Assembly (NCBI GenBank): GCA_010093815.1
Contig: ML996570.1
Length of the DNA: 64,000 nucleotides
Origin: Pseudovirgaria hyperparasitica
Lineage: Eukaryota
Reading direction: 5' to 3' (one strand)
The notes beneath the pieces were generated by a model, which was given only the letters and a program-made list of their open reading frames with translations, was not told the origin of the DNA and searched no databases. Below, piece by piece: positions 5,941 through 59,369 of this stretch (position 1 is the stretch's first letter; each line of letters starts with the position of its first letter). The position numbers were made by a program, and so were the translations under genes.

Positions 5941-7851
5941 ATGGCCATCTGGAACAGGAAGAACCACAGTGATACGGCCTCCGACGAGAGTCCGCAGCGC
6001 GCTCAGGAATTCGGAAAGTCTGAACAAGACTATCCTCAAAATGAGACCATCGTGCTGGCTGATGGCCAGCAAGAAATCTCAAATAAGGAGGGCACAAAGC
6101 TTCACCGTGGCCTCAAGGCCAGGCATATCACTATGATTGCCATTGGTGGTGCTATCGGCACTGGCTTGATTATCGGTACTGGTGCTGCTCTCGCGAAAGC
6201 TGGGTGAGTCTATCTGATGCGACACAGTTTTGTGTGTAAATACGGAATGAGCTGACCATATCTACAGACCTGGCTCAATCCTCATCTCCTACTCCATGGT
6301 CGGTCTTCTCGTCTTCATTGTCATGGCTGGTCTCGGTGAGATGGCTGCGTGGCTTCCTCTCGGTTCTGGTTTCTCTGGCTACGCTACTCGTTTCGTCGAT
6401 CCGGCTCTTGGTTTCGCTCTTGGCTACGTGAGTTTCCAATTCTCACTCCAGGCAGAATGTGAGCTAATCATTGTGCGCAGACCTATTGGTTCAAATATAT
6501 CATCGTCACGCCCAACCAGCTGACCGCTGCTGCTCTGGTAATCCAATTCTGGTGTCCACCTGAAAGAGTAAATCCTGGTGTCTTCATCACTGTCTTCTTG
6601 GTGGCAATCTTATGCATCAATTACTTCGGCATCAAGTTCTTCGGTGAATTTGAGTTCTGGCTAAGCAGTATCAAAGTCGTCGTCATTGTTGGTCTGATTC
6701 TGCTCTCCTTCATCCTCATGCTTGGCGGTGGCCCAGACAAAGATCGCAAAGGTTTCCGTTATTGGCGCAACCCTGGTGCTTTCAAGGAGCTCACGATCGG
6801 CGCCAACCACATCACGGGAGATACTGGTCGCTTCCTTGCCTTCTGGGCTTCAATGGTCACGGCTGTCTTCGCCTATCTCGGAACTGAACTAGTCGGTGTG
6901 ACTGTCGGCGAAGCCCAGAACCCTCGCAAGACCGTGCCACGCGCCATTAAACTGACCTTCTATCGTATTCTCTTCTTCTACGTTCTTTCTGTTCTTCTCT
7001 TGGGCATGAACGTGCCCTACAACTCCCCCGAACTGATCTTCGCCAACAAGGGTACCAATGGAGGCGCCAACAAGTCCAGTGCCTCTGCCTCGCCCTTCGT
7101 TGTCGCCATTCGTCTCGCAGAGATCCCACATCTACCTGGCATCCTCAACGCCTGCATTCTCATCTTCGTTTTCTCCGCTGCCAACTCGGATCTCTACATT
7201 GCGTCACGTACGATTTACGGTTTGGCTTCGCAAGGCAAGGCTCCTCGAATCCTGGCCAAGACAGACAAGCGTGGTGTGCCCATCTACGCGCTTGGCTTGT
7301 CCTCGCTCTTCTGTCTGCTTGCATACTTGAACGTCGCTGATGATGCTCGCGTTGTCTTTGGCTACTTTGTCAATCTCGTCACCATCTTCGGCCTGTTGAC
7401 ATGGATCAGCATACTCGTCACACACATCTTCTTCGTGCGCGCCCGAAAAGCTCAAGGTATTCCTGACAGTGCTATGCCTTACACATCTCCCGGTGGCATC
7501 TGGGGCACATACATTGCGCTCTTCTTCTGCTGCCTGATCGCAGTGACGAAGAATTTTGACGTTTTCATTCGCAACCCCAAGACCGCAACCAACGCTACCG
7601 GCTACGGTAACTTCGACTACAAGAACTTCATCACTGGATACCTAGGCATTCCGCTGTACCTGATCATGATTTTCGGATACAAGCTCTACTACAAGACGAA
7701 GGGCATTGCGCCACTCGAGGCAGACTTCTACTCAGGCAAGGCTGAGATCGATCGCGAGGAGGAGGAGTTTCTGGCCAGGAAGGCTGCTATGGGTGAGAAG
7801 ATCAAGGGAGGCAACTGGTTCTACAGGACATTTGTTTCGTGGTTGTTCTAG
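5941..7851 (+). CDS. DIP5: APC/YAT-family amino-acid permease, Dip5-like (dicarboxylic amino acids); 3 exons, ~597 aa
   Basis: LHRGLKARHITMIAIGGAIGTGLIIGTG, GEFEFWLSSIK, AYLGTELVGVTVGEAQNPRK motifs. GT-AG introns 6204-6267 and 6428-6480 with CTGAC/CTAAT branch sites join the three ORF pieces in frame. Confidence 0.9.
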
Positions 7852-8280
7852 ATGTGGTGGGATTTTTTATTGGAAAGGTTACATATGGGAAATGTATGTG
7901 TGGTGATGATACCAATTACGTAGGACGATTATTACGACAGGAAAAGTTGATGCGTATTCCTGAATGGACGCTAGAAGCGTGCACGTGTTTCAAAGTACAA
8001 AAGACGTCGTGGACAAGCCTGGTCTGATTGATGCTGACTGTGACGTGATGTGAAGCTTTTCTAGGTACCTAGTAGGCGGGGAACACTCCGTAAGACCTTC
8101 CCCGAATCCAACGGCGCCTGCTTCCGTGCATCAAACATCCATCAACCAACGGGAAGAGCAACTTGACGACGCGTCTCATTCCGCTTGATCCGATCGAGGA
8201 TCATGGCCTCGACGTTTCTGTTGAGGCATCCTGGCTTCTCAACTCCAATCTTTTCATATCTCTGAGATTCATCCGCTGAC

Positions 8281-10018
8281 ATGGACGGCGAATCTGACAA
8301 ACGCCAGACACCCTTGTCTCCCACTCCGGATTATCCCATGTCAATAAGAGTCCAAGAGAATCGAGCTCTTGGAGCCGGCCAAGGTATTCGACACAGCCCT
8401 GATTCAGACGACCTCCAACAGCGGCCTACATATGCACACAATTCTCACGTCTTCCATCATACACATACTCACGGCTTGACGAGACTTGCTCAAAAGCATC
8501 GCAAGGCCACGCTCGGCCCACTTCAGCAATGGGAGGAATGGGAGCAAGACGGCAGGGGACCCTATCATGAATACGTCCACAAATGCCTTGAAGCTGGATG
8601 GACCAATCTCCAGGTATATTAAGTACTGCCCCTGATCTAATCTTTACTGAAGTTGTAGGACCTTGACGACTACTTGTCGGTCGATTTCGAAGACTTGAAC
8701 CTGAAGATCTCTGTCATGGACATCAAGAACGACAACACAGCTCAGCACTACGAAGAAATGCATGACGACATAGAACTGGCAGAATTCATGCGTGAAGTGA
8801 AGCCATTTGGATGCAAGTCTCGTATATATGTCGTCGAGCAATCTGGCTACATATCAAGCAGTATCATGGAGTCTTTCGGTAGCGCTCTACAGCTCGATCC
8901 TCGCTTCTTCCAGTGGCATATCAGAGGCAGCAAGCACATGTTGTCTATTGCCACACGAAATCGGACGCCCTTCATCACACTGAATTTCAGAATCAGTGAT
9001 CCCTCGGGGGAGACGCCGACTGATACAAAGACATTCAAAGCTTCCATCTACGTATCACGTGCATCGCCCGATTTCTGGACAGGTCAGTTTTGTCTTACGA
9101 ACGTAAAACCGGCACAAGCTCATGCGTACTAGGCGTCGTGTTCATCAGCTCACATTCGAAGGTGATGTTGTCCAGCCACAGCTTCCTGACACCACCCACG
9201 TTCACACCGGACTTCAGCAACATTCCCACTCCACAGAAGCCGGGCCCCAAAACCTTTCGCGAACTCTACATCGAGATGCTCGCGAGCTCCAATCTTGCTG
9301 AAGCTGCCTTGTCACCTTTTGTCGCCTTCTCTCCGCTGTTCAAGCTCAACTGCTACACCTTCAACCAGCTGATGTACACCTTCCGCCAGGAGGATGCGAA
9401 AGTCGAGGGCGTTTCCGAACTCTATCCCGTCAACCTCACCGAGGAGATTCGCAGGTCCTTGGAAAGCGTCGAGCGCGGCGGCAGTCTAGGCTGGAAGGCG
9501 AGCTCGACCCCCTTTGAACAGGACACCAAAGAACGCCTCCGCGAGGACTTCAATTACGCATTGAAGTCGTCCGAGATGCTCTGGCAAGCCCGCGAGAAGT
9601 ACAACGACACGCACCACCGCCGCACAAACGCCCGCATTTCCGCGCTGGCCAACGCATTTGCCTTCTTGTACGCGTTTCTTTTGTTTCATTTGTCACAGCT
9701 ACACGTTGCTGACTCGTGCCGAATACTGACAGATTCTACAGCTTCGCCCCCATCTCGCTTATCTCCTCCATCTACGGCATGAATATCACTGAGATCTCGG
9801 GCGACGATAGCAATCCCCGGCTCTGGCAGTTTTTCGTCGCTGTCGCGGGCCTTTGTGTCGTTATTATGCTCATCATTGCCGTTAGTGCCTGGGTCCAGAT
9901 GGCGGTCCAGTTGCATCGCAGGGCGCGGTTCAAGGATATCTTGACGTTTGCTCTGGGTACCAGTATGGCGGCGACCGTACGGCCGAGGAAGGCGTCGACG
10001 GTCGTGTTGGAGTCTTGA
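8281..10018 (+). CDS. CorA-like (GMN-motif) divalent-cation transporter domain protein; 4 exons
   Basis: Introns 8614-8658, 9083-9132 and 9668-9741 join the ORF fragments in frame. C-terminal TM-'SIYGMN'-TM pair (FFAPISLISSIYGMNITEI...LWQFFVAV); upstream LDPRFFQWH motif. Confidence 0.75.
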
Positions 10019-25531: not shown

Positions 25532-27957
25532 TTAAGTTCGATTCTATTTTACTCTCTAAGTACTTTACTATAGACTTCGGAGATAATACGTAGAGTAATA
25601 CTAGGGGCGAGCTAGGCTAAGACCTAGATCTAAATATAGGGTTATAAAGCGCTAAAGAGGCGATCTTTAATCTACTATAACGCTAGTAAGCCCTTAAATA
25701 AGAGATTCTTACTATAAGAAACTAAGCCTTCTAGAATTAATCGAGCCCCGCTATAAATAAACTACTAAAGTCTCTACTTAAAAAGATAACCTTAATCCCG
25801 TAAACTAACTAGAAACTATTAGGACCTAGGGACTAGAAACCGCCCTTCTAGGACGGTAAAGTAGCTACCTTCCGAGACTATCTATTATAGTTATATAGCT
25901 TCTATAAGGTATGATCCGCGCTTAAGCTAAAGCTATCCCTAGATTACTATTAGAATACTATCTATAATACTCTACTAGTGTAAGAATAGGGTTATTAGAT
26001 AGTAGTATAGTTAGATAGAATAATAGGGTATATTCTATTATAGAACGAATTACTACCGAACCCTTTCGGTAGGAATCCGAGAGTATATATATAAAGGGAC
26101 GCCGATCTATCTAGTACGTAACTATTTACCGCCCTTTATATTACCTCCTAACCCTATTAGCTAAGGTATATATAGGTTAGATCCTACCTAAGGCTAAGTC
26201 CTAATAATTATCCCTTCCCTCTAGGAAGCTACCCTTAGCGACCTAGATTATTATCTATCTCTATATCTCTATTCTAAGTCTCGTAAGACCTTAGTTATTC
26301 TCTACGCTTCGTCTTAGATATTTACTAATATTTACTAATCTAAGATTTATATAAGCGTTTTTCTAATAAACTAGATTTTATCTATTCTAACTTCTTATAT
26401 AGGTAAGATTATCTAATTAGGCCTAGCGTATCACGTAATATAATTAGGTAAGCCCGGGTACTACCTATATTAAAATCTTTTCTTAGAAATATTCCTTTCT
26501 TTAAAAAACTTCTTAACTCTTTATAGAGTTTTTTAGATTATTAGATATATTACCTAATCCTTATAGATATAGATTTATATAGATTTACTATAATTTAGTA
26601 CGATTTACGTAATTTACTAATTTTCGTATTATCCTTAGCTAGTAATAGTATAATTCGTAATAATCCGTATAAATCGGTAATAATTATAATATGGTTTTCT
26701 AAAATCTTAATACTCTAAAGTAATTAGTACGGAAATAGGCGCCTTTAAATAATCTCTATCTTATATACGTTACCGATATATCGAAAGCTATTAATCTACC
26801 CTAACCTAGGCCGGGCTCTAATAATCTAGCTATATATTATTATAGTTATCGCTTTCCGTCGTATATTACTTACGGTAGTACTAAATCTATAATATATAGT
26901 ACTTATATAACTAAGAAGCGTTATTACTTATAGGTATTTAAGTAAGTTTAAAGAACTTTACGTAGGTTTACTTATATTAGTATAGATTACTACTAGGCCT
27001 CTAGTAACCCCTACTAATAAGGAGCGTAGTACTACTAATTATAACGCCTTAGAGAAGGCTTTCTACGAGCTATATATCTAAGGTAAGGGTTACGTCTAGA
27101 AGTACGATTCTAATAAGATCCGTAAGGATTTATCGGAATCTACTATAGCTATTATTACCGCGATTACTAGGTATTATTATTTTTCTTAAATCGTTATAGA
27201 TTCTTACTAATATATATTAATCTCTATAATTATAAGGATTATAGACGTAGGATAGTAGTCTAATAGGTTATAGGAGGATTCGGGAATATATTTAAAAGGG
27301 TAGTCTACTCTTCTAACGAGGTTGATTTCTAAAGAGTAGGAATTAAGTATATGCGGCCTACTTATATAGTAGTCTCGCTTATTCTAGCTAGCTTAACCTA
27401 GGTCCACCTATCACGGACCGTACTAGACTATAGTAGTCTAGTTAAGTCTATCCTAGTATTAGCCCTAATAATATTCTTCTTCTTCTTATGCTTCGCCCTA
27501 AAGTACTTAGCTATATATAAATCCGTAATTCTATAAGCGTTATATTTATACGCGTATCTAATTAAATCTATATAACGTTATCGATAGTCTTTATATTAGT
27601 AAACTTAAGCTCTAGTTTACTTTTATTTATACACGCACTTATCCCTTACTTTATAGCTACTACCTTAGAGGTAGCTCCGCGGGTTATATAACCGCTATAT
27701 TAACTAAGCTTATATTTAGTTCTCTTATTCTAAATTTTCTTCTCTAGTATATCTACCTTACTCTTAAGGTAAGTTATTAATTTATATACTATCTCCTTTA
27801 GTTTAAATCCGTTCGGGTCTAGAGTAGTCCATTTTTATTAGAGCTAGTTCTATATAATCTATTCGCGTTATTATGGTTACTAATTTAGCTTCTTTAATTA
27901 CCTTTAAGACTAAATAAGTATTCTACTCTTAGATCTCTAGCTAACGTATATATATAG

Positions 27958-29262
27958 ATATCTAATACTAGTTCTATTTCTAAGCCTACCTCCTCCTCTC
28001 GCAAGACTCACTCTAAAGAAATTATCTCTACCCCGGCTATACTAGCTAAAAAATCTACTTATCGTAGTAGTATAAAGGCGCGCTCTAAGTTAGAGAAGAA
28101 GATAGCTAAGGCTACTACTACTATTACTACTAATATAGCCACTAGTCACTCTAATCTAGGTAATTCTAGTACTAGTATTGCGGAAGAGGTGGCTATAAAG
28201 CCTACCTACACCTACTCGCGCCGTCTATCTACTCTACCTCCTTTAGAGGATAAAGAAGATCTCGTCGTAGACGATAATCGAGAGTTTACGCCTTCGCCGC
28301 CTCGCTCTAAATACTATTTCTCTTTTCGGTCTAATATAGACTAACTTAGTTACTCTAGATCCTTTTAGAACCTTAATATTTACTCTAAACCTAGCCCTAG
28401 TAATAATAAGGCCTAGGTCGCCGAAGATACTAAACGTAGTCGCGGTTTACGCTATAGGAAAATAGCGAACTACGGTTTAATATACTTTAAGTATATTAAG
28501 GCTTACGCCACCGGCTCTAAATATCTCTTCCGCTCTAACTCTAGTATTAGCTACTACTCTACTAACTACGATAGGCCTATATATCTAATCTTTAAGCTCC
28601 CTACCCGCTACCGCCGCTATACTATCCTTAGTAAAGTTTATCTTTAGATAAGTCTATTAGGCTATTTTAGTCTAGGGTAATCTAAAGTCGTCTATACTAA
28701 TACATTTTTAGGTTTCTATTTATATATAAGATATATATAACGATCTTCGCGTCCGTGAGACTCTCGGTAGTTCTAGTAGTTATCTAGCTTCTATACGTAG
28801 GGAGTTTAGGGAGCGCTATAAGCTCTTCCTAGAGGTTATTAAAGTATAAGTTTAGAAACCGTTAATTATTATTAACCTTAGCTTATAATTTTTAGTCGCC
28901 GCGAGATTCCTAGCGCTTAGGCTATCTATTCTAGGGAGTTGGTTTTAGCTACTAAGGCCGTAGAAGAGATTCGTACTATTCCTTCCCACCCGCCTTATAC
29001 TACTAACGGGTCTCATAAGAGATCTACTAGTTCTCCTTCTAAGTTACCTTATAAGAGGGTATATATTCTATTCTAGATTATTCTAGACCGCGTTAGCTAA
29101 CTTTAGGTCTAGTCGCTCCGCTCTAGCGCTTAGTTATTATCTTACTAGGCTCTAACTAAGCGCGTAGTTACTCTAGAGGATAAGGTCTCTAACCTCTGTC
29201 GCTCTATTACTTAGTTAGTTCATTCGCTATACTCTAAGAGTAATAATAAGATAGAGGAGTAG
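27958..29262 (+). pseudogene. Antisense spliced accessory gene of C (~380 aa; Ser/Thr/Lys-rich N-terminus, Zn-cluster-like motif, coiled coil)
   Basis: Exons 27958-28647, 28712-28845, 28896-29058 and 29107-29262 total 1143 nt in frame. Branch-site/AG signals present. Donors of introns 1 and 2 read ATAAGT; the intron-1 donor is intact GTAAGT in the D homologue. Confidence 0.75.
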
Positions 29263-29799
29263 CTCTATGGCTCTATTTACTAGGGTTTCTATATAGTGTA
29301 TGTTGGCTCTATCTACCTAGTTTCTATCCGTTTTAGTCCTTTTTAGACCGTTTAGATACCTATCTACTAGTTTTCTAGTAATTTAATTCTTAACTTAATA
29401 ATATTATATACGTTCTTATTTATTCTATAACTATTAAATTTTAGATTCTAATTTCCTTTAAGTTACTTAAGTATAGGTATTATATATAAATTAGTTTATC
29501 TCTCTAAATTATATTAGAGTACCTAAACTAGTGGCCTAGTAGTTATCGGTTTAGATACTCTAACCTTTTATATTATATATCACGAGTTTAATTCCGTAGT
29601 AGAGTACCTTTTTAGTTTCTTAGTCCTATATTCTTCTCGTGTATAATAGTCTATATTAGTCTATTCTAGACTTCTCTATATTATTCTATTATAATATATC
29701 GCGTTGCGTGCCTATACCGGTTATTTATATTTTCTTCGCGTTTAGTAACCGTATATCGCTTGAATTATAGGGCTGCCTTATAGAGTTTTCCTAGTATAC

Positions 29800-32700
29800 G
29801 TTTAGGATTCGTGATTTAATACTTCGTTCTCTATGGTATCCTTCTTCTTTCTACGACGGCCCTAACGGCGCTAGGTTTATAGTAGTAACGTGTTATCCTA
29901 TAACCTCTATTTATATATAGCTATCGCGGTACTTAAGATATATACTATAGGTTCCTAGGTATCCTTATCCTTAGTATAGTTCTTCTAATAGATTTAATAC
30001 TTTTGGATACTATTCTCGTTAAGCCTATGTTTAATAATATAGTCTACTTCGTATACGTCTAGTCTATCTTAGGGTATAATAGAGTATAATTACACGTTCG
30101 TACGTTTATATACGTTAGATCGAAACCTTTTAAGTAATAAGACGTGGAATACGTTATGGACTTTTATATCGTTTCCTAGGTTAAGCTTATAGACTCTTAT
30201 ACCGATATAACGTTTAATTCGGAAGGGACTAGCTATTTTATAATCGAGCTTTTTATTTACTTATAATGTTCGTATATTATAGATATTAAGGAGGACTTTA
30301 TCTCCCTCCTCGTATACTTAATCTTTAACTAATCTATTATAGTACTTTATATATAACTTATTCGCTTACTAGATTATTACGTGATAGTTACGTACGGTTT
30401 TAAAGATTTTAATCGCTAGTTCCTACGCGTAGACGTTAACATCTATTATTTAGTCGAACTAGACCGTGTAAGGTTCGAAACCTATCCTTAGACTACGTTC
30501 TAGGTTCGTCTAGAAGGGCGTAACACCTATTATACTATAACGACTATTATTATACGCGAATTCTACTATACTTAGTAGAGAGGCCTAGTCGTCTTATTCG
30601 AAATTATAGAATGTATAAAGGTAGGCCTCGAGCGTTTGGTTCTATCGCTCTATCTAACCATCTATTTATAGATGGAATACTATTAACATGTTTCTATTTA
30701 TACCAGCCATTTCATAGAATAACGTCTAGAATTTAGACGTGAATATACTCCCTCGGTCCGTAACAATCCTTTTTAGTATACCATGGACCTTAATAATCTT
30801 ATTCTAGAATACTTATACTAGTTCTTTTAATATAATCATCTTCTACATAGGGACATACCTAGATATCTTTATAAGTCTATCCACGATAATAAGAATTAAA
30901 TTATAACTTATTCTAAGTATCTCGCTTAGAGGTAAGTTAACTATAAAATCTATAGTAATATCTTTCTATATAAAGAGGGGGACTAGTAGAGGCTATAAGT
31001 TCCTATATAGCTTATACCTAGGTACCTTTATTCTTTAATAAATCGGATAAGTAGCTATCTATTCTTTAATATACTTAGATATATCTTCCTAAAAATAGTA
31101 CTAACGAATCGAGCTTAGGGTGCGTATATACCCGAAATGTCCTACTAGGTTAGCGTTATAGTATCGGCTAACTATAGTAAATCGTGCGTTACCTATTGGT
31201 ATATAGTACTTTCTATTATAGTAGAGTAAGCCGTCTATAAAGGTCTACTTATAGTCTACTTCGGTCCGTAATAACCTATCTTACTATATTTTACGTAACT
31301 TTAAAACTATTAGGTCTGTCTTTTATAGATCCACGATTAACTAGGCGAGGTCTACTTAATATATACGCTAGGTACCATCGCCCTCCCTAATAGCGCTAAT
31401 AAATGGCTCGCTAGGGACTTCGGTACCGTGTCTTTAGTTACCGGCTTCGGTCTTATAAATTTAATTACCGGTATTAGCGTTAGTATCTCGCTAATTATTG
31501 AATAACTTATTATCTAACCTCGTCCTTAAGAGTTAGGCCTATAGCTACTCTAGGACTCTATAGCTACTATAACTCTAGGCGCCTTCTTTATAGTTAGGTC
31601 TTCTTAATATTCTATTAGCTAGGTTTATACTTCTAGATTAATAGTAGATTATAAAGTAGAAATTTATAAGCTACTTAGCCTATTAAACCTATCGATGATT
31701 TAAAACTATCATGCTTATAAACCCCTTTAAGTTATAGTAATTAGTTAGTAACTTAACGTTATACATAGTACCTTTAAGATAATATCGCCACTACTTAAAC
31801 GACTCTACTATTACTAGTAGCTCTTAGTTATAAATAGTATATCTAGTCTCGACGTCGGCTATCTTACGCGAGAAGAACGTAACTAGATACTATTAGACCT
31901 TTTTAGACTCTATTAGTCTAGGCTAGGAGAGTATATCTAAGATTATAAATTCTAATATATTAGTTTTAACGTGAATAGGTTTAGTTAGGTTAAAGTGCAC
32001 TAGTAATAGGGCGGTTATAAATGCTTCTTTAATCTTCTTAAAGGATGTTCTTTCGACCTTAGTTAATTTAATAGGTTATAATTTAATATTATACTATTTC
32101 TATCTACCACGGACCGTAATAGACGAGTCGGTAGTAGTAGTATACGTATTAAGTGGTGCGGCTAAACGGAAGAAGTGTTTAATAAATTTTCGGTAGTAGT
32201 TAGTAAAGCTAATAAAGACACGTATATGTTAAATAGATTTTAGTTTAGGCTAGTCTATAATAGTAGTAACTCTATCTCTCTCTATAGTTATACCTTAATT
32301 AGTAATAACGAAGCTAAGAAAGTTAATATAGTCCTAATGGAACTCGTATTTAGATAGCTTAATATATAGCTTATACTTTTCTAGCCTATCTAGGACTATA
32401 CGTACGTGCTAGATATACTCCTCCTCGTTATCTAAGAAGATAAGGATATTATCTAGGTACATAATATATATTATATCGAGTAGGCCTACTAGCGCGTTAT
32501 TAATATATGCTTAGAAGGTACCTAGCGCGTTAGTTAGTCTAAAAGGGACTATAGTATACTTAAAGTATCTATAACGGGTTCTAAAAGCCGTTTTCCATTC
32601 ATCGCCTTCCTTAATACGAAGGCGATAGTAGATGTTACGTAGATTAAGCTTAGTAAAGATCTTTACGCGTCCTAGTCTATTAATAGACTTAGAGATAAGA

Positions 32701-34960
32701 GGTAGTAGGTAACGATTCTTTTATATAATATTATTTAGGCTACGGTAGTCGATATATAGACGGAGGCTCCTATTCTTCTTCTTTATAAAGAGGATTAGAG
32801 CTCCGGCTAGAGATATACTAGGCCTAATCTATTCTTGCGTAAGGTTCTTTTCGATATATTCTTAAAGGGCTTATAACTTAGGTTCTAAAAGAGAGTAGAT
32901 AGGTCTATATAGAGGTTACTAGCTATCTTCGAGATTAATAGTAAGGTTAGTAGATTAGTATTAAGGTAGTTTAGAGGAATCGATCGCTAACGCGATATAT
33001 TAGTATATTTTATACTAATATAGTAGGTTTTCGTCCACTTTAATACTAAGCTCGCTATTTTACGTAAGTAAGAGTACGTAGATAGTAGAGATCGCCTTCT
33101 TATAATCTTTCTAGAATTATTTATCGTCGATAAGCTATACTAGTTCCTATTAAGGTAGGTTTATGCGCTAGCTAGCTATCTTCTTAAGGAAGTCTAGTTT
33201 TAGATTATATTTCTTAAGCTATAGTATACCTAGAATTATATCGAAGGGACTATCTACCACGATAAAGGTTAAGTAGTAGAGTTTCTATTTCCCTCCGCTA
33301 TCCTAGATGCTATATTTAATAGTATAGGTACCGTATGACTTAATAGGACCGTTAATACTATAGAACATAGTATCTATTAGAGCTTAGATATCGGCGTTAA
33401 GTTCTCGTGCTCGTTAGGTTAATATAACGTTAGTAGCCGACCTACTATTAAGTATTATAGTCTAATATTATCCACGAGGGACCTTAATAGATCTAGTCTA
33501 TAGTTCGATATACTATTTAGCGGATTACCCCTCTATTATAGTCGCGTCTATAAGTCGCGAGGGTTTCTTATAGACTATTAGTTTTTTATATTCTATGCTA
33601 GGTAGTTAGGCGCGATGTATTCTAGCTACTAGTACTTATAGTATATAACTAGTTAGTTAGTTATATTAGCACTCGGTAGCTTCCCTAAACGGTACTTAGG
33701 TACTATATAGTCTATTCTACTATAGGTATAGTAAGTAACTTTAGGTCGTTTATACAAGTCAGTCCTTATATCTTAATATATCAATTAGTAGAGAGATCCA
33801 CAATACAATCCGCGTGGTTTTAAATTTAAGGCGTGGTAGTAGCCTTATAACGTCCCGCGAGATCTATTACTAAATCGGTTTTAGTTAGACGATTTTACGT
33901 TAGATTAGATTATTAGAGATAGTTATATACTAGCGCGGCGTTAATTATTTATTATATACTAGTATCGCTCCGCGAGGTTTATAAGAGCTTAGAGGTCTAT
34001 AGGGATTATTATTATAAGGTTAAGACGGTCCTTTATATTTAGGGCGAGAGACCGTTTAAAGTCGTCGTACTATCAAATTATATAATCTTCTTTAGCTTCT
34101 CTCTAGAGGGGCCGAAGGTATTTAAGGAGTTATAACGGTAACTAATTATCTCGTTATCGAGTCTTAAAGATATGGCCCTAGACCTAGTCGCGTTATTTAG
34201 CCCTATCGCTAAAATATTAGAGAAGAAATTCGGTGAACGTGTCCTAGTTATAGGTATTCTTAGAATGTTTAATTCGGTATACTATCTAACGTTCTAAAGG
34301 CGTTAGGTTAAGGTAGTTCTAGGCGAATCTAATTTTATTACTATCGTTTATAAATAGATGGAAGAATCGGCTATATTAGTAAGCCTATACGTGGAAACTC
34401 TTTCTACTTTTACTATTAAAGTAAGATAGTTTCTTAGGTCGGGGTAATTAGGATAGTAGTAGACTAGGATAGATTATTTTAGTTAGTATAGGTCTATATA
34501 AATATAGATTAGTCGTTACTAGAACTAAAGCGCGTAATATAGCTTTAAGTCTCGTAGTACGTTCTCGAGCTTTATTAAGTTCGCGTAGTTATTACTTAAG
34601 TTAAATCTATTATTATCTCTCTTCGTGTAGTCTAGTATATACGTTATTATAAGGTGTGGTTAACGTTAGGCGATTCTAATAGATTAACTTATTAACGTTA
34701 ATAAGGTCTAGTCTTATATTAAGGTTAGGTCTAGTATAGTTCGAACTAGACTAAGATAGAGTATAATAGACTCTATCCTTATATTCTATAATATCTTCTA
34801 TAGTTATACGGAATATCGTGCGAGTTATTAGTACGATAGCCTATAAGATATAGTTATTAGTAGGGGTAGTTATAGGTAGACTATTCTTCTCGTTTAGGTT
34901 AGGAGAAGGTCTACTATAAGAGGCGGTACCACGAGTGTTATAACGAGTAGTTAGAGCTAT
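29800..34960 (-). pseudogene. gag-pol of element C (gag CCHC knuckle, protease, RT, RNase H, integrase, chromodomain), RIP-disrupted
   Basis: Minus-strand [27 protein letters not shown] (~32575-32660) and YLDNILIF (~32440-32460); colinear with the pol of D. Ends approximate. Confidence 0.9.
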
Positions 34961-35890
34961 TTCTATAAACTACCGTCGTGCTATATAAAGAGGAATTAAA
35001 ATATAAGGATTATAGACGTAGAATAGTAGTCTAATAGGTTATAGGAGGATTCGGGAATATATTTAAAAGGGTAGTCTACTCTCCTAATAAGATTAATTCC
35101 TAAAGAGTAGGAATTAAGTGTATACGGCCTACTTATATAGTAGTCTCGCTTATTCTAGCTAGCTTAACCTAGGTCCACCTGTCACGGACCGTACTAGACC
35201 ATAGTAGTCTAGTTAAGTCTATCCTAGTATTAGCCCTAATAATAATAGTGCTAAAATCTCTACTACTTCGGACTTCTTTCTATATACTAGCGATATTAAA
35301 ATTCCTAGAAAAGGTTCTAGTAAAAAGGCTAAGGTTCCTTCCTTACGCGTGCTAAAGAGCTATAAATTTAGAGAAGATAGCTCTAATCTAGAAGTTTCTA
35401 TACTAAAGGTATATAGTTCTATACCGATCGTTAAATCTTTTTACTAATTTATATAATTCTTAGCGTGCCCGCGCCGGTCCGTCTCTCTCTATTCTAGGTT
35501 CTACTACTCTATAGGTTTCTATAGAGGAGTTTATAGCTATAAGGCGCGCTATATAGAATTTATAGCGTCGGAACGAAAGGCTAGAGACTTATATTATAAA
35601 GCTCTATACTATACTAAATAAGAACTAGCAAAAGGAATTAGATGTAACTATCGCGGTAATTAGTACTTCTACTCCTACTCCGACTTAATTAGTTTAGATC
35701 TATACTAATTAGTACTAATATATCTCTTTTATCTAGTATTTTTAGTTTTTTAGTTTTAATTTTAAAGTAATCTTACTTCTTCTAGATAGATTAGTACGAG
35801 TTTATAAAGATCTATATAGATCTTTATATTTTCTTTTAGCTTTCTTAATTTTATCTTTCTTTAATAATAACTTCTTTAATCTCTTTAGTA

Positions 35891-35931
35891 ATCTATACCG
35901 ATCTATACCGATCTATACCAATCGGCACCGA
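35891..35931 (+). repeat. 10-bp tandem repeat ATCTATACCG x ~4 in the 3' region of B
   Basis: Directly visible; lies between the pol end and the stop of the antisense gene. Confidence 0.75.
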
Positions 35932-36059
35932 TTTTCGATATCTATTTCTCTCGGTAAATTATTTTTCTAAGTCTCTTTTTTAGTTAAATTTTTTAAAGTT
36001 CTAAGTTTAAACTTTCTAAGGAAGTTCCTTAATTCCTTAGAATATTTTAAAAATCTATG

Positions 36060-39000
36060 TCTCTTTTACCTTCTTTCTTTTAGGCGGCTATCCTTAGTAC
36101 TAAACTATACTAAAAAACGTCGAATTACCGTACTTTAGTATAATTCTCTACGATTCCGCGGCTTCCTTTACTAATCGCTACTTATATACTAATATTGCTA
36201 CTTTACTAATGTTTATTATAGGTTCCTAAGTATCTTTATTAGGATTATATCCTTTCTAATGAATTTTATATAGCTATATACTATCTTCGGCGCGTTACTA
36301 GCTAAGTATCTACTTAACTTTATAGATATCTATACCTTCTTACGTAACTACTTTATATAGTATCTATTTAGAATAATCTAGTAATAATAAGGTATAAAAT
36401 AGCTCGAGAAGCGTAATATAGAATATATTATATATCTTTAATATAGGAGGGAGTTATAACTCGTACGCCTAGTTATTAATTACACGAGTAATCTTATATA
36501 GATCTATTATCGTATAGTTAAGCTTCTTCTTTAGCCTAATACTATGAATATTCTTACTATTTAGTAAAACTTTATCCCTAATATTAAAGATCATGGGTTT
36601 TCTGCCCTTATTATAGTGCGATTTACTATAATTTATAGTATCTTATAGTAACTTTATAACGCTTCTTTACGTTTAGAATAGTTCTATAGTAATTTCTATT
36701 ACTTTAATATTAGATTATTCTACTTTAAACTAAGTCCCTAAGAACTATATATTATAGTTCTAACCAAAGTTTACTTCGAACGGACTTACGTAGGTTAATA
36801 TATATCGGCTATTATTATACGCGAATTCCGCGATATAGACTAACCTTATCTAGTTATTCTACTTATAGTTATAATATATATATAAATACGCCTCGACTAT
36901 CTAATTCTACCGCTCTATCTATCTATCTATTTATAGCTAGAACGTAGTACTAAGTTTCTACTTAATTCCTAGTGTATAGTAGAAATCCTTCTAAAATTTA
37001 GACGTTATCTATGGACCTCTATCCGAAACTATACCGTTCGGTATACCGTAGAGCCGGACTACGTTATAGAGTAGTATATCTATAAGATCCGGTACTTAGA
37101 TTATCTTTCTTATAGGGATATAGTATAATATCTTTATAAATCTATCTAGAACTACGAGTAAACTATTATAAATATACCTAGAATACTTACTTAGGGATAG
37201 ATCTATAATAAAATCCATGGATAATTCCTTCTATGCCTCCTTTAGCATAGATAATAGCCTTAATTCGCTATATAGTAAGTGTCTATATACTTTTATATAC
37301 TAGTAAACGTTATATATTTTTACGTAGTCTTTTATATATTTATAAAGACCTAGCTAGTCGTACATTCTTTAGATTAAATCGACCGTCCTTATAACGCTAA
37401 AGTACCCTACTAACGCGTAATTATACTATTCCCTTAAAATATCAATTTATAAGCCGCCTTCTAGTATATAGAGTCGGCCTTAGAAGTAGATCGCGTCTAA
37501 TTATTATTCCTACCTTAATAACTACGGCGGATCTATAGCGCTTCCTTTTATACTTATAACTTTCTTTACTAATATATCAGAATTCTAGGTAGATTTAATT
37601 AAGTCTTTAAGGGTTTTCTTAGTTTCTTAGACGTTTATTTAGATTACTTAATACCCGCTCTAATTCCCGCGGAGAATCGCCGAAAGTATCCTAGCTTCTA
37701 GTATTCTATTAGATAACTAGTCTTATAGTATCTAAAGTATAGTATAGTCTAACTTATACCGACTATCTACGTTATTCTATAACGATTTCTTATAATCTTT
37801 ATACCGTAATAGAGGATTAGCTTTATTCTCTCTTCTAGCTTTATATAAGATTTTAAAGTTAAATATTAATATCTACTTAGCCTAACGTACTTATTAGCAA
37901 TTAAGAACCTTAGTCAATATAAAGTAACATAGATTTATATAATCCGATAATAATTTAATCTAATATATAGAGCCTTCTAAATAATATTACTATTACTTAA
38001 AACTCTTAATAATTATAAGTAGTTTCTAGTTATACATGTTATAACGTATCTCTATATCCGCTATTTTATAGAAAAAGAAAGCGACCGGGTACTATTATAC
38101 CTTATCTTTCGTATCTTTATATAGTTAACTAATAATTCTAGTAATTACGAATTCTAACGCGTTAGTTTCGACCCGAATATACTTCTTAGAATTAAAATAC
38201 CTAAGAATCGGCGTAGTTATAAAGTAATTCTTTAATAATCGGAACGTATCTTACGCTTCCGGCGTTAACTATATCCCGACCGACTTAGCTTTACGCTATA
38301 CTCGCCTATCTATAGAGATTTTACCGCTATTCTCTATAAGTTTATTAAGTAGCGCCGTAATTTATAAGAAGCCTATAATAAATTTATAATAATAGTTTAT
38401 AAAACCTATAAATATTCTAATTTAACGTATAGTAGTAGATTCTAGCTATTCTATAATGGTCTTTACACGCTCCGGCTCTATTTTTAGGCCGCTATATATT
38501 ATAATAAAGCCGAGAAACCTAACTTCTTATTAGTAAAACTTATATTTAGATAATTTTATATAGAGTTTATACTACCTTAGATAATTTAGTATTAATTTCA
38601 CGTGTTCTTTATAATTCCATATACTATTAGAGTAAATTAGTATATTATTAAGATAAACTACGTAAATCACGTTAAGTAATTCTATAAGTATAGTATTAAT
38701 ATATCCTTAAAACACTCCTAGCGTATTTATTAGCCCGAATAGTATAATAGTATACTTAAAATAACTATATCTAGTCCGAAATGCGGTTTTCTACTTATCT
38801 CCGCGATGAATTTAAAGCCGGTAATATATATCTTATAAATCTAGCTTTGTAAAGTACTTTACCTTCATTAATTAGTCTAAAGATTTACTAATTAGCGGTA
38901 ATAGATAATAATTCTTCTTAGTTACTATATTTAGTATCTAATAGTTAATATATAGACGTAAACTTCCGTCTTTCTTCTTCACGAAGAGAATAGATACGCT

Positions 39001-41100
39001 AGCTAATAACGTACTATAACGTATCTAGCCTCTTCTAAGGTATTCTTTAATATATTTATAAAGAACTTCGAGTTCTAGTCTTAAAAGTAGGTAAAGTAGA
39101 CTATAAGGGACGTCTACTCTCTCTTCGAGCTTGATCTTTAGCTTATACGGCCCGTAATTAGGGAGAAGTGATGTATCTTCTACCGAAAACATATCTATAT
39201 ACTACGAATATACGTCGGGTAGCGTGTCTTTACCCTGATTATTACTATCGTCCTCGTCTTTATTAATAATTAATAAGAATATAAGATAGATTAGCGACGA
39301 TTAGGTCCGTATAGCGAGGTTCTATATCTCCTTACTAATAGTTATAACTTACTAGTATAATTTACCACGGTATCGTTAGAACGTTAATATCTTCTTCTAA
39401 AAATTAAGGATAGGGTTTAGGTATCTAAGCTAAGGCATCCCTAGAATTATATTCTATTAGCTAATATTAGCTACGATAAATTTATTAGATATCTACTATT
39501 TTATTATCTTTAAGTTATGAACTTCGTAATTCGTTATAGCTTTATCTAAAGTTCTAACTTTATATCTATTAACTACGATAGTTTAGCTAACTTTACCGAG
39601 ATTATATAATAATCTATACTCCTTTACGAGAATTAATAAAATATAGTTATCTTCTATACTAGTGTCTACTAGGGTCTATATAGTTTTATTACTATTTACT
39701 ATAGATAACGATACTTTTAGTAATATTAGGTCTTTACTCGCTAGAAGGCGCTACGGCTTCTCCTAAGTATATATAATTTAGCTAAGGACGCGGTTAGATC
39801 TCGTGTACTAGCCTATTCTTTTTTCGGATTCTTATAGTTAGGCGAAATATATTCTATTTCTCTATACTTATAGTAACGAAGTACGCTATAATCCTACTAT
39901 TTTACGATAGGCGTTATATTTAAGTCTATATCTTATCCTTTTCCGCGTTAAGAAGCACCGGCTTAATTATTTTAGTATCCTCTTAACGCGTTTCTACTCT
40001 AATTTACGCTCTTCTAGTACTAATCGCGGTAAGGTTACTCTTAATCGAACGTATTTAATGGACCTCGTTTCTAATCCGTATAGGGTTTATTAGTTTTACC
40101 TAGAGAGCTACGTTCCTTAAGGATACGGTAGTATTTATTAGCTTTCTTCTCTAATTCGTATAGATAGTTAAAACTTAATAATACTATCCCTAGTCTTTCG
40201 CGGATTAACGGAAGTAGTACTTCGCGAAACTAGAATATATAAATATTTTTCTATAGTATAGGGATATTATTCTATAGGTTTTAGAGGTATTATAGTAGTT
40301 AAGTAGATGTCTAGTTCGGTTATTATACTATACTTCTTAACTTAGATAGTACCTTTCTTTCACGTTCTCTATCCGTTCTAAGGGTGTTTAGTATAAATAT
40401 AGCTAAATATTCCTAGGTTATCATAGATAGTAGCTATACTTCCTTCTATCTATCCTATTAATCACAGAATTATAAGTCTAGGTATCGTTCTCCGAACGAA
40501 ATACGTTATACTTTAGTAGAAAAGAGTAGAGGGTTATCGAGAAAGTACTTTTCGTAGTCTCTCTTCTAGTCTTTCTACTCCTTTTAGTTCTTCTCTATAA
40601 ATATAGTCGGGTCTTTAGATTTTAGTATACCTAGGGAAGAAGTAGAGTAAATTAGTAACGAAGCGGCTAGGTATATAGTGGATTATTATAACTCTAATAG
40701 TAGGTAAACTAATTCCGCCTAAATTAGTATAGGAAGTCGTCTACCTACTATCGTTCGGCGTAGTTCCTTAAGAGACTCCTTAAGTTCTTATCTCTTTATA
40801 AGGAGTTTCGCGCGTTCTATCTATTCTTTAAGGGTTTAAATCTCTCGAGCCTAATTTACGACGTATTTCTAAAGTTTAGTAATGGTTTATTATAATATCT
40901 TACGTGGCTCTGCCACGACTCGTTATCCGGCTTTATATTATTAGAAGTTACTTAGCGTATCTACTATTTCTTCGTCTAAAAGCTCTATAATTTAGTCTAA
41001 TATTTCTACTTCTCGGTTAGAAACGGCTAGGATTAATACTAATTATAGAGGATCCCTATTATTTAATATAGTATTACTTATCCCTATAGTAGATCGTGTT
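36060..41100 (-). pseudogene. gag-pol of element B with chromodomain, RIP-disrupted
   Basis: Minus-strand FTKLDL...KTAFRT (~38770-38855), VVYLNNILIYS (= YLDD, ~38630-38660), integrase GPY-like region, chromodomain IYKVK*IL...YKIH*KGYNPNKDT*EP (~36210-36330). Ends approximate. Confidence 0.9.
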
Positions 41101-41704
41101 AACCTTCTCGGTTCTAGTTAGACTATCTTAACTATAGTACTATATAGGGAGTAATTCGAATATAAGAATAGGGTTATTAGATAGTAGTATAGTTAGATAG
41201 AATAATAGGGTGTATTCTATTATAGAATGAATTACTACCGAACCCTTTCGGTAGAAATCTAAGAGTATATATATAAAGGGACGCCGATCTATCTAGTACA
41301 TAACTATTTACCGCCCTTCACGTTACCTCCTAACTCTATTAGCTAAGATACGTATAGATTGGGTCCTATCTAAGGCTAAGTCCTAACAACTAGCGCGTAA
41401 GAGAAACTAAATATAATACTTCTAGAAAAGAGGAGACTCTATAAAAGGTAAGGACCCTAAAGCCTTCTTTATATAACTCGAGTATATATTTATAGATAGT
41501 AATAAGAAGGCTAAGGCCTTAGAAAAGCTTTCGTTACTTAAATATATAAATAGCTAACCTTAGTATAAATACTAACTTAAATTTAATAGGCTTCTACTAA
41601 GTACCGGTAGAGATAACTAGAAAGATAGCGTAAAAATTAGCTATCTCTAAAATACCTTCTTAAACCCCGCTTATATATATATAGCCTCTATACTAAGGAT
41701 TATA

Positions 41705-44700
41705 TAGATTTAAAAAAACTTCTTACACCCTAACGGACCAAACTAGTCAATTCGGGGTAAAACAGCGATTTATATATATCAAACGATAGAGCACACCGAG
41801 TATAACAACCTCCGACATACGTATATACGTGTAGCGTATAATACGCGACGATACCGACGTGTAGAGACACTATATATATACGCTCGAAGACTCTTCGATA
41901 ATATGAGCATAGACTATATCTAATAAACGCCGACACGCCGACCCCCTTTTATTAGTTAAGGGCTACCCTTAACTAATAATTATAGCGGCCTTAGGTACCG
42001 ACGTACCTCGGCTTCCACCGGGTATACCCCTAATACTAGTACGGTAGAAACGGCTATATAGCGGCATATCCTAGGATAATTAAACCCCCGTCTAATTAAC
42101 GACGAATAACTAAGGGCGTATAACGCTATAGATAATAGAGACGGAGGGGACCCCGCCCGGGGAGACCCTCCCGGATAAGATTAACTACTAGGTAGCACGT
42201 GTAGAGGGGGAAGTCGAGAAGGGAGAAACGGCCCTCCTTAGTATTTTCCGGAACCTTATCTAGAATATTAGAGAGCTTACCGTAGGAGTAAAATAGGCGC
42301 CGGAACTAGACCCGGAATCTAGACTAGATCGCATAGAGGCCAGCCTATAGAGGATCTAGGAGGGCCTTACCTAGGGAAAACACCCTAGCACGTGGGTATA
42401 GGTCGCCGCACCTATAAGCGGAATAGCCATGTTAGCTAAAATACTAAGGGTACCTATAGACGGGGCATGTAGTATATAAGTCGCTATCTAGGATAAAGAA
42501 GTACTTATATAAGTCTAGTAAGCGTCCCTAAAGGATATTATAAATAAGATTAATAAATAGAAAGGGATATGGTTAAATGTAGTGGCCGCTAAACTCACTC
42601 TAGGAGGTATAGTACTAACTACTACCACTAACACGGCCTAGTAGACCATCTTACGCGACCCGAACGTAATTAACGACATCTTCCCTAGCGCGTCCGTCCA
42701 CGTAACCACGTACCCGATATAGATATATACCGTCCCCGTCCGAGGACACGTTATTAGAGAAGACGATATCGAGCGAATAGAGCGATCTAATAAACCGAAG
42801 TACCCTAGGATTAAGATCGCGAAGGCGTAGTAGAAGAACGTCTAAGGGATCAAGATAAAATTAAAAAAGTACTCTACTATAATAGTAGAGCTTAGGGACC
42901 CCGCTCTCGCCTATAGAATAATATAGGAGGGCTTCCTAGCTGAAGGAGAGCTACTTACGGCGGAACTATGGGATAGGGCATGGGTAATAACGCAATGCTT
43001 TAACTATTAAGGATATGGGTATACTAGGTAGAGGTGCTCTTAGAAGACCGCCTGTGGGTGGTATAAATAGGGCTATAATACTAAGGAATACCCTTATAAG
43101 ACGTAGAGCGATGAGACGCGAGATAGGGACACCGCTAAGTACTCTAACTATAACGGGAAATACCTATCCTAGTCGGTAACGTGCACGAAACGTAAGTAGG
43201 TCGTAGAATATATTAACGCGATAAAGATAAGAGGAGCGAGGTAGATATACTAAGCTATAAGGCCCTTGCTGCCCTCGCCGCTATCCCTAACTTTACTTAT
43301 AAATCTAGTAACTACCCCCCGAAGGGGAGAGGATAACGCGTAATAGTATACTATATAGAGAAAGATAGGCCGACCCCGGGGTATACTTAAAGCCGCTACC
43401 GCGTGAGGATAATCACGCCTTAGCGCTACTAATATATAGACTCGAACTTTCCCTAGCACCTAATAAGGGTATAAGATATACTTATTATTATATAGGCGAA
43501 CGTATAACATAAACAAGAAAACTAAGCGACGCTCCTAGAAGAGACAGGAGCCGTAATAATAGCTATCTAGGAACTATATAAATACTACTAAACTAATAAG
43601 CCAATAACACACCTAGGATACTATACTATCCACCCTATAGGCCCGGATAGAAGAGTCATGTTTTATATATATAAGTTGATCCCGCTCTTAGAATAGTCTT
43701 ATACTAAATATAATAACCTCTAGATAACACTATATCTCTAGATAAGTATAGGGCCTCTCTATATCTATAATATCTATAATTAATAGCGATCGCTTACGCT
43801 AGACGATATACTCGAGGGCACCACGACGCCGGGATAATACATCCTCCTAGGCGACTTTAATCTCTACTATAGGTAGTAGGGAGGCCTAGCCGTCGCGAGA
43901 GAAGAACTTAGAGTAAGGGAACTATATACACGGTGCTACGACTTCCTATACCTCCTTATATCTATAGGGTAGATTACCTAGAGGAAATATAAATAGGACG
44001 AGAACGGGTCTACGCTCGACCTTACCCTCGCCACCGAGCATATTAGCCATAGAGTATAGTACTACCGCCCGAGCCGGATATAGACGGACTCCGACCACGA
44101 ATGTATGGAAACCGTAATAGACGTCTCCACTCTTAACAAATAACGTAGAAAATAGCTATAGAAGGATACTAATTAGGATAAATACCTAGAGGACCTAGAA
44201 TCGGTAATTCTAGACCCCTCTATAGTCGACGTATCTAACGGCCTAGCCATAGATAAGGCCGTGTAAGTCCTCCTTTAAGTATACTAAGCCATAAGAGATA
44301 AACACGTGCTATACCGAACGTATAGACCCCTAGAAGCGAGGGGTATACCTTAAATATAAGAGTATAGAAGAGACGCCCGTAGACTATATATATATGTATA
44401 CTATATCCGGATAACTAAGGCGTGGGAAGAGTAGAAGGAAGTAGTACGATATCGTGATAGGGCCCTCCGTAATAAACGATGAAAATAATAGTATATAATT
44501 ACCAATAAATACACACGGTAAGCCGTAGGGCTATGGCGTATAGTAAAGTAGACTAAGGGTATAGACGCGCCGACGCCGCCGCCACTAATACCTCCCCTAA
44601 TATACTAAGAGAGGGTTACTCTATAAGCCCGGAGAAGACGGAGATCTTATATAAAGTTATGTTTTCCCTCCCGGAGCTAGTAGACCTATTAGATATTAAT

Positions 44701-46990
44701 AATACTAAATATCTAGATATAATTAATATCCTCTAAGAGGTTACTACGGAGGATATACTTAACGCCGTTAAAGTACTCCCGAATGATAAGGTACCCGGAC
44801 TAGATAGAATACTAAATAGGTACCTTAAACGCACTATACTAGCTACCCTACCGCTTATTAGTTATATATTTTAAGCATGTATTAAGAACGGATACCACCC
44901 CTAAAGCTTTCGGGCCGTCTATACTATTATACTCCCGAAACTAGGGAAGAACCCTAGCTCCCTAAAAGGATAGAGGCTAATTGCCCTCCTCTTCTATCTT
45001 GGGAAGATACTAGAGGCTACGATCGCAAAGAAGATAAGCGCCGCAGTATAGAAATATAACCTTCTTCTAGTAAACTAGAAGGCGAAGGCTAGAAGCTCCC
45101 TAATTACCGCTATCTAATATATCCTTAAAGTCGTCTAGACCGTATGGAAGTAGGGACGTGTAGTAACGCTACTCTCCCTCGATATGGCCGGCGTATTTGA
45201 TAAAGTAAACCACACGAGACTTATCTATAACTTACGGAAGAGGCGTATACCCGCGTAGATTACGCGGTTTATATAGTTCTTCCTCGCCGAAAGAGTTACC
45301 TAGATATATATCCCCGGATATCGAAGTAAGTACGAGAAGACGGCTTACGGCATCCTATAAGGAAGTACTATCTCCCCGATTCTCTTCCTCTTCTTTACTA
45401 TAGACCTTCTCTAGGGAATATAATATATAGAGGTAGTAGGATACGTAGATAATATATACCTTCTAGCTATTAATAATAATACTAGCTAAATATATAGACG
45501 ACTCGAATAAGACCACGGGAGATGCGTCTAATAGGTAAAGCGCCACGGAGTAAAGTTCGCCCCTGAAAAGTACTAACTCATATACTTTATTAACTGCCGT
45601 GGGAAATAGGCTACTAGGGAAGGCGAGTGACGCCCTAGAATAGACGCCTTCGACGAACCGCCGATATAAAGTATACACGCACTTAGCGTTATGATTAATA
45701 ATAAGCTTAAATAGGGACCATAGGTAGCATACGCCGTTTCTAGGGCCCTCTAGGTAGAAGCCGCTATACGACGGATTATAGCCTCCATATAGAGAACCGC
45801 CCGGGATAAGGCACGCTAGCTATATATATCTATAGTACGACCCGCCTTTACGTATAGACACGAGTACTAGTATACGGCCCTTATATAGACTAGGCGAACG
45901 AAGCTTAAATCCATATAGAACCGTATACTCCGTCTTATATTAGGCGTATATAAAGCTACTAACACGGTGCTACTACGACGCGAGATAGACGTTATAAGTA
46001 TATATAACTTCTACTAGATATAGAGGGTGGTATACTTTACTAGATAATAAGCATAGGAACGTGTAGAAAATATAGAATATACCTTCGCCGCGCTACGCGC
46101 GCGGGTTAGCGTATACTACTAAGTACTCTTATATATAGGCCGGACTCGACTACGGTATAAGTGCCCGATAGAAATAGACTCGAACTAAGTGGTATAAGAG
46201 ATTAGGGATAACCTAGACGCCCTCCTAGACTAATAGAGCCTTCGAGAGCTTAGACGAAGTATATAGTTATAGATCTAAGATAAGTAGAAAGAGATACTCC
46301 GGGCCTAGTGGGCCTCCTAGTAGGATAGATACCTAGAGTGGATCCGAGGACCATAGAAGGAGCTGAGTAAATAGATATATAAAGGGCTTATAAAGGCCTA
46401 GGTATCTATACTCCTCTAAGCCTAAACGGGCGCTATAGAACTTCTATACTACCTCTATAAGAGAGGCGTCCCTAACGTGTCTCTATAGTATAAGGCGTGC
46501 GGCCGGAGAGGTATAATACGCCACTATCTTATAATATACCCTAATCTTTACACGTAAAGGTAGAAGCTTATCCACACGATAAGAACCTCCGATATCGTAT
46601 AATAGCTTAATAAGTACCCTAAGGAAGTCGCCCGGTGGATGATTATATACCTACTACTCCTCTAATTCTAGTAGACCCGGAAATATATATCGGAAGGAAC
46701 CCGGTATACATTAGAGGAAACCCGGCATATGCCGGAAGAACCCCTTAACTAATAACCTCCGCACCTATACGTGCTGCCTAAGGGTAAAATAACGGTAATA
46801 TAGGCTATAGGCTAATAGGTGTACCCTATGGCTATATACTTAAGAAGAAATAAAGGTTTAACGAGATGTAATTATTAATATAAGGAAGTTTTCCCCTCTT
46901 AGGTTTCTTCTTATATAGTAGCTTAGACTAGAGGAGGCATAGGCCTATAGAGTACTACTCTACCTAGTTATACAATATTATTATTATTAT
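41705..46990 (+). mobile_element. Full-length non-LTR retrotransposon (Tad1-like LINE), RIP-inactivated, inserted in gag of A
   Basis: ORF1 zinc knuckles (QCFNY*GYGY...C; CGWY...). ORF2 APE motifs IAI*EL, ILLGDFNL, STLDLTLAT, DSDH. RT motifs KVPGLD, *RLIALL..LGKILE, LSLDMAGVFDKVNH, GIL*GSTISPILF, GYVDN. (ATT)n tail. 16-bp TSD TATACTAAGGATTATA (41689-41704 / 46991-47006). Confidence 0.93.
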
Positions 46991-59237: not shown

Positions 59238-59369
59238 ACCTATAGAATACACGGATAAAGAAGAGGAAGACTATATAGTCTTAAGAGAGAATAGAAAAGA
59301 AATTCATTCTATAGAAAAAAAAAAAGAAAAAAAAGAGAGAGAACTAAACGCTAAAGGAAAAGGCCTAGA

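Follow-up and report, generated by a model that had tools for sequence, protein, structure and literature searches.

A RIP-mutated antisense accessory gene with a probable loop-extended cysteine cluster in a Ty3/Gypsy chromovirus of Pseudovirgaria hyperparasitica

Element B, a Ty3/Gypsy retrotransposon in the 64,000-nt stretch of DNA analysed here (the window), carries antisense to its gag-pol a four-exon accessory gene of about 270 codons. On balance, the explanation we favour is that this RIP-killed gene encoded a protein with a loop-extended cysteine cluster, a zinc-binding nuclear dimer that would have regulated its own element. The headline claim of the initial annotation, in which selected TAY codons of exon 1 were read as TGY to give a near-canonical, compact six-cysteine Zn(II)2Cys6 cluster (C-x2-C-x7-C-x7-C-x2-C-x6-C), is unsupported; the gene and its cluster are real in a loop-extended form, and represent a variant of a known, poorly studied kind.

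Element B and its antisense gene

The first part of the window, up to about 24.5 kb, is genic fungal DNA, beyond which lies an AT-rich block with a RIP signature; the CA+TG index is 0.02-0.05 in the region of 26778-26933, compared with about 1.2 in the genic part. CpG sites within 24500-64000 and in the B copies were mutated to TpA as well as to CpA/TpG (of 231 TA-type sites, 53 trace back to CG), and hence Arg codons too end up as Tyr or stops. Element B, on the minus strand, is a Ty3/Gypsy chromovirus, having LTRs and a target-site duplication, reverse transcriptase before integrase, and a C-terminal chromodomain. Pfam searches with its pol returned RVT_1 (6e-19), SH3_Tf2-1 (6.8e-9) and rve (8e-4), a less mutated B copy matched Chromo (6.3e-5, below the curated cut-off), and PF00385 is present in the nearest intact pol proteins. 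The accessory exon occupies the plus strand in the interval that separates pol from the 3' LTR. The features of the element and of its antisense gene are as follows.

25974-25978 and 41389-41393: target-site duplication ACTAG of element B, the element ends being read directly
25979..26206, minus strand: 3' LTR of element B, 228 nt, from self-BLAST and comparison with full copies
26691..26933, plus strand: exon 1, running antisense to gag-pol, 81 codons from a probable start (ATG in 37 of 99 copies)
26934..26985, plus strand: intron 1, 52 nt, phase 0, two codons past the last Cys
26986..27170, plus strand: exon 2, 185 nt, phase 2 at its end; B subfamilies differ strongly here
27171-35248, plus strand: intron 2 of B, containing element C
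27231..35241, minus strand: element C, Gypsy, nested in B intron 2, with duplication ATAAT and its own four-exon antisense gene at 27958-29262 (plus strand)
35249..35408, plus strand: exon 3, 160 nt; in this frame, stops at any one codon affect at most 10% of copies
35464..35688, plus strand: exon 4, 74 codons plus stop
35900..41100, minus strand: B gag-pol with reverse transcriptase, integrase, Tf2-type SH3 and chromodomain (Pfam)
41161..41388, minus strand: 5' LTR of element B, 228 nt, from self-BLAST and comparison with full copies

The exon models of B and C were read by us from mutated DNA. That of B comprises exons of 243, 185, 160 and 225 nt (270 codons; phases 0, 2 and 0) and GT-AG introns of 52-62 nt, and its exon frames hold few fixed stops, with a single one in the frame of exon 1, the fewest of the six frames (2-5 in the others). 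The C gene (exons of 690, 134, 163 and 150 nt) has the same phases and intron-1 position. The initial annotation had considered 26778-26933, which is the 3' two-thirds of exon 1; the exon most likely does end at 26933, immediately before a GT donor. Our first model placed intron 1 at 26942-26996 (phase 2), which is less likely, as its donor reads GC in three copies and the other donor matches that of elements C and D, the latter an inverted relative of C. The switch to 26934-26985 preceded examination of the intact element L188, described below. Exon 3 is basic (in the least mutated copy, 12 of its 53 codons are K/R), and in exon 4 a simple count, made without a control, found 7 of 8 a/d positions of a heptad pattern to be hydrophobic. 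We regard the antisense four-exon gene of B as very probably real.

Plant retrotransposons are described as carrying additional antisense genes in the space from pol to the 3' LTR, and Botrytis and Sclerotinia have such genes under the name brtn (PMC7264820, PMC8365987, PMC4227169, PMC5987419), and one of these sources presents their role in LTR retrotransposons as an open question (PMC7264820). The B gene matches the brtn-like class in position: its host is a fungal Gypsy element, and the gene lies antisense in the interval from pol to the 3' LTR. Botrytis brtn likewise resides in a chromodomain-bearing element. This comparison is one of described position and orientation, and the portions of the brtn descriptions available to us do not mention a cysteine cluster. 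The plant aORF-3R of Grande, RIRE2, Retand and PvRetro13 shares the same position and orientation; its hosts are plants, and nuclear localisation and a regulatory role have been proposed for the plant proteins (PMC7264820). Our searches of openly accessible literature listed no paper on a zinc-cluster-like protein in antisense retrotransposon genes.

Several other elements were observed in and around the window. Element C is inserted 2 nt (plus the 5-nt duplication) upstream of the B intron 2 acceptor. A RIP-mutated LINE (endonuclease and RT) is present at about 42000-47000 and again at 62099-64000, where the second copy splits B copy 2, whose sequence picks up again near 933985 of G000:C6. 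Another Gypsy element (RT_RNaseH, rve), distant from B by RT, lies at about 55900-61000. Elsewhere, locus L145 (G000:C8:587100-596300) holds two neighbouring B copies in opposite arrangement, one of them partial.

Ancestral codons of exon 1 across the B copies

B loci were collected by DNA search, by a degenerate pattern (109 matches, 100 of them in the matches listed; none in the control) and by a search with a divergent copy. A first count gave 102 distinct copies among 111 loci, and the final count, used below, 119 copies distinct by aligned sequence (112 main and 7 divergent). The translation quoted by the initial annotation for 26778-26933 (plus strand) was reproduced, and the Tyr codons at 26838, 26847, 26871, 26895, 26904 and 26925 do have the spacing that it gave. 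Tyr nevertheless makes up 8.6% of six-frame residues in the RIP region. Near-canonical Y/C spacings numbered 4 in this 39.5-kb region with stops allowed, against 5.2 +/- 1.9 in 20 simulations, and 1 without stops, against 0.3 simulated. The Tyr spacing alone is thus weak evidence for a cysteine cluster.

Codon counts across the copies overturned the register, showing that the choice of Cys among RIP-made Tyr codons by their spacing is unsafe. The third proposed cysteine, at 26871, reads CAY in 40 of the 119 copies and TGY in none, and CAY at one of the six positions is what the initial annotation itself had named as counting against the compact reading. T>C was also seen at 26871 in two DNA sequencing runs of one sample, for which the rows listed held no new entry at either 26838 or 26895. 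At the remaining proposed positions, TAY was found in all 119 copies at 26838 and 26895, whilst TGY occurred in 12 copies at 26847, 4 at 26904 and 2 at 26925. The ligand codons of exon 1 are listed below.

26757..26768, plus strand: upstream C-x2-C (codons 23 and 26), absent from the initial annotation; TGY in 10 (26757) and 5 (26766) of 119
26835..26849, plus strand: middle group; only TAY at 26835 and 26838, Cys in a single copy at 26841 and in 12 at 26847
26871..26873, plus strand: His codon, previously read as the third Cys; CAY 40, TGY 0 of 119
26895..26927, plus strand: C-terminal half [?]-x2-C-x5-H-C; 26895 TAY only, 26904 Cys, 26922 His (CAY in 3 of 119), 26925 Cys

TGY at 26757 and 26766 was kept mostly in the least mutated copies. 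By mutation rank (1 being the least mutated), the copies that kept it were 1, 2, 3 and 13 at 26904, 1 and 3 at 26925, and 3 at 26841 (TGT). As the retained TGY and CAY codons sit in the least mutated copies, and non-RIP back-transitions are rare there (the five least mutated show them at 1 of 272 control sites), we take them to be ancestral states. In the accessory frame, six codons retain TGY; the other five frames of this stretch average 1.6 such codons (Poisson p about 0.006, or 0.013 if the rate is taken over the whole region). Of 109 CA/TG-derived sites, 35 survive in just one copy, and among the 69 invariant TA sites very roughly 40-70% are estimated to be fully mutated. An invariant TAY is therefore compatible with an ancestral Cys, many CA/TG sites probably having been fully mutated. 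In B copy 2, which continues outside the window, each of the ten codons read is TAY, so this copy says nothing about ancestral Cys. Codon 26862, considered as a third Cys (x4), aligns to GCG, GTA or ATA in five divergent copies and was rejected.

The B cluster reads C-x2-C-x24-C-x-C-x7-H-x7-[?]-x2-C-x5-H-C, six Cys and two His being seen in copies of exon 1, and its spacing by choice of middle ligand is C-x2-C-x24/26-C-x17/15-[C?]-x2-C-x6-C. We consider this extended register to be likely. What stands of the earlier proposal is that exon 1 encodes a cysteine cluster, including its C-terminal half (x2-C-x6-C); the near-canonical compact form does not.

Related elements, homology and divergence

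The cluster of element C, and the antisense gene of the intact element L188 (IMGVR_UViG_3300031425_000001), are located as follows.

28483..28647, plus strand of the window: element C cysteine cluster C-x2-C-x19-C-C-x17-C-x2-[?]-x6-C, with an intron two codons later
439-3 and 6931-6490, minus strand of L188: unbroken four-exon antisense gene with open frames

The expanded spacing (x19, x18) previously given for C and D was borne out, with TGY kept at 28483, 28492, 28552, 28555, 28609 and 28639 among 46 distinct copies. No TGY was seen at 28618 in these copies, nor in a wider count of 98, in which 28609 and 28639 had 6 each. C/D also carry a His at 28504 and an adjacent C-C. The blank in B (26895, the first Cys of the second pair) is TGY in C/D, and the blank in C/D (the second Cys) is TGY in B. 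The suggestion that B and C/D are compact and loop-extended variants of one fold holds insofar as the two are probably one module, but B is not compact, its first loop (x24-26) exceeding the x19 of C/D. The contrast disappears because 26871 is His and the first C-x2-C lies at 26757-26766. The family-specific DNA targets also suggested in the initial annotation are conjectural.

Outside the B and C/D families, 37 Gypsy loci were obtained via pol, and three of these, from two distinct elements, had an antisense cluster; many of the outside contigs end soon after pol, and absence of the cluster there means little. L188 is an intact, circularly assembled Gypsy element that has a 123-nt terminal repeat. 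Both its gag (417 aa) and its pol (1122 aa) are open, and pol includes a chromodomain. The antisense exons of L188 measure 252, 146, 190 and 192 nt (phases 0-2-0), and the eight Cys of exon 1 are arranged as C-x2-C-x8-C-x7-C-C-x29-C-x2-C-x6-C. B, C/D and L188 therefore have in common the slot, the phases 0-2-0 and an intron two codons past the last Cys. Were phase frequencies equal, any one pair would agree in all three phases by chance about 1 time in 27, but of the three models compared, two are our own. In an RT tree, B and C/D were sisters (98/98), and L188 fell within the same 19-row clade (99/98); the RIP-mutated rows were flagged for biased letter composition, which makes the closest joins less sure.

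Sequence similarity between the modules was not detectable, with hhalign probabilities of 0.04 for B and C/D, 0.39 for B and L188 and 0.11 for C/D and L188, nor did like-numbered exons exceed a z of 1.7 in exon-by-exon comparison. The best local match of B with L188 comprises five residues around the middle Cys. From slot, exon structure, cysteine pattern and the RT tree, we infer that the B module is homologous to those of C/D and L188. An alignment search gave no intact homologue of B exon 1 among 291 candidates, and a search of 1.84 billion representatives gave two matches, both to long repeat proteins lacking the motif. There was no match in 76 viral-contig stretches, and the best E in 16 metagenome loci was 0.13. 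L188 exon 1 retrieved only L188 itself from the viral contigs, and the best Atlas value was 0.84, giving leads only. The other outside element with a cluster (loci L153 and L154) is a distant Gypsy element with an intact many-intron antisense gene behind pol (about 7000-9186, minus strand, in L153). An internal exon of this gene encodes C-x2-C-x8-C-x12-C-x2-C-x9-C, without an intron two codons past the last Cys, and its RT is distant; the L153 exon had no homologue among 287 candidates and no match in Atlas or Pfam.

Divergence was measured between main B and five divergent copies. Transversions in pol at codon positions 3:1:2 numbered 12:5:3, whilst the accessory exons had no third-position bias. 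In accessory exons 1, 3 and 4, transversions affected 5 of 115 sites at 4-fold positions and 18 of 515 elsewhere (p 0.59), and thus no signal of purifying selection on the accessory gene was present in this comparison. With the first intron-1 model, exon 2 had transversions at 6 of 29 synonymous (4-fold) sites and 22 of 142 others, or 28 of 171 sites, against 2 of 173 in the introns. The limits of this diverged patch roughly match those of exon 2, which fits either a swapped patch or fast, diversifying evolution. Expressed for exon 2 (26986-27170) against L102, L133, L204, L205 and L206, transversions affect about 16% of sites, and about 1% in both introns and pol.

Zinc-cluster membership, proposed function and alternatives

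The Zn(II)2Cys6 motif is defined as C-x2-C-x6-C-x5-16-C-x2-C-x6-8-C (PMC2447501). The x6 between second and third Cys is absent from all three families, B having x24-26, C/D x19 and L188 x8 or x16. The third-to-fourth spacing, expected at x5-16, is x15 or x17 in B by choice of ligand, x17-18 in C/D and x29 or more in L188, and of the three Cys in the terminal C-x2-C-x6-8-C, two were seen in B, a complementary two in C/D, and all three in L188. Pfam searches with three B copies matched no family, Zn_clus included, and the best PDB match had an E of 0.1 for B, with none for C/D, the mutated queries lowering sensitivity in both searches. The exons of L188 and L153 did not match Zn_clus either. 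As the x6 loop and the Pfam match both fail, the B protein falls outside the Zn(II)2Cys6 family under this definition, though it may still work like a member. Single-sequence AlphaFold models of these two intact exons were of low confidence (pLDDT 48 and 52) and gave no usable fold.

Two C-x2-C pairs, a second half of the form x2-C-x6-C, stretches of basic residues and, downstream, a coiled coil recall the Gal4-type cluster, which has a coiled-coil dimer arrangement. The modules differ from it in the loop lengths above, where Zn(II)2Cys6 proteins have an invariant x6 bearing the residues for DNA recognition, in their extra Cys and His, and in matching neither Pfam nor PDB. We put a six-Cys binuclear, Gal4-like fold for B at somewhat below an even chance. 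Under the explanation favoured here, exon 1 would hold C-x2-C, a loop of 24-26 residues, C-x-C, His and then [C?]-x2-C-x6-C, codon 26895 presumably being Cys, as in C/D and L188. Such a cluster would likely bind zinc, and the basic exon 3 together with the coiled-coil exon 4 make a nuclear dimer plausible. There is about an even chance that the dimer would bind the LTR DNA or chromatin of its own element, as an activator or anti-silencing factor, and similarly that this binding would regulate transcription or silencing of the element. A more ambitious proposal, which we hold only tentatively and think rather doubtful, is that one chromovirus clade (B, C/D and L188) possesses an undescribed loop-extended zinc-cluster and coiled-coil protein acting as an element-specific DNA-binding activator or anti-silencing factor, in which the 0-2-0 scaffold and cysteines are fixed while the other residues, exon 2 above all, evolve very fast. 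If true, this would be a fungal counterpart of retroviral accessory proteins. L188, as an intact natural member with a defined exon scaffold, could be assayed for zinc, fold and LTR binding.

Three other explanations were weighed. The gene may be real and its domain composed of two separate zinc sites of the cross-brace type, drawn from seven to nine Cys/His and acting by protein or chromatin contacts. Spare ligands exist in every family (six Cys and two His in B, the C-C and His 28504 in C/D, eight Cys in L188), and Pfam matched L188 exon 1 only to a PHD variant, below threshold and across 14 residues (E 0.018). However, the extra ligands are not aligned between families, and what B, C/D and L188 all share is limited to the two C-x2-C pairs, a middle Cys and the final x6 Cys; we consider such an arrangement unlikely, though the foremost of the alternatives. 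Less probable again is a compact C-x2-C-x7-H-x7-C-x2-C-x6-C site starting at 26838, to which the upstream C-x2-C would be an extra. The TAY-only 26838 could have been Cys, given that roughly half of the invariant TA may be fully mutated CA/TG, the His is compatible with the divergent subfamily, and the distant L153/L154 exon has a fairly compact intact cluster (x8, x12, x9). Against this, C/D and L188 lack a C-x2-C at the matching place and each have one upstream C-x2-C, and the His breaks the Zn(II)2Cys6 definition regardless.

The remaining alternative denies a protein function altogether, the locus being an antisense, possibly spliced RNA or a decayed spacer, and the Tyr/Cys pattern a product of RIP and chance. 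Tyr spacing at chance level, the failure of the searches to find homologues, and the alike transversion frequencies at 4-fold and other accessory sites all accord with it. The clustering of retained TGY codons in one frame does not, nor does the diverged exon 2, which is without a frame-breaking indel in four of the five divergent copies, and we judge this explanation very improbable. The gene for a loop-extended cluster protein is further favoured over it by the intact element L188, in which the same exon scaffold occurs with open frames.
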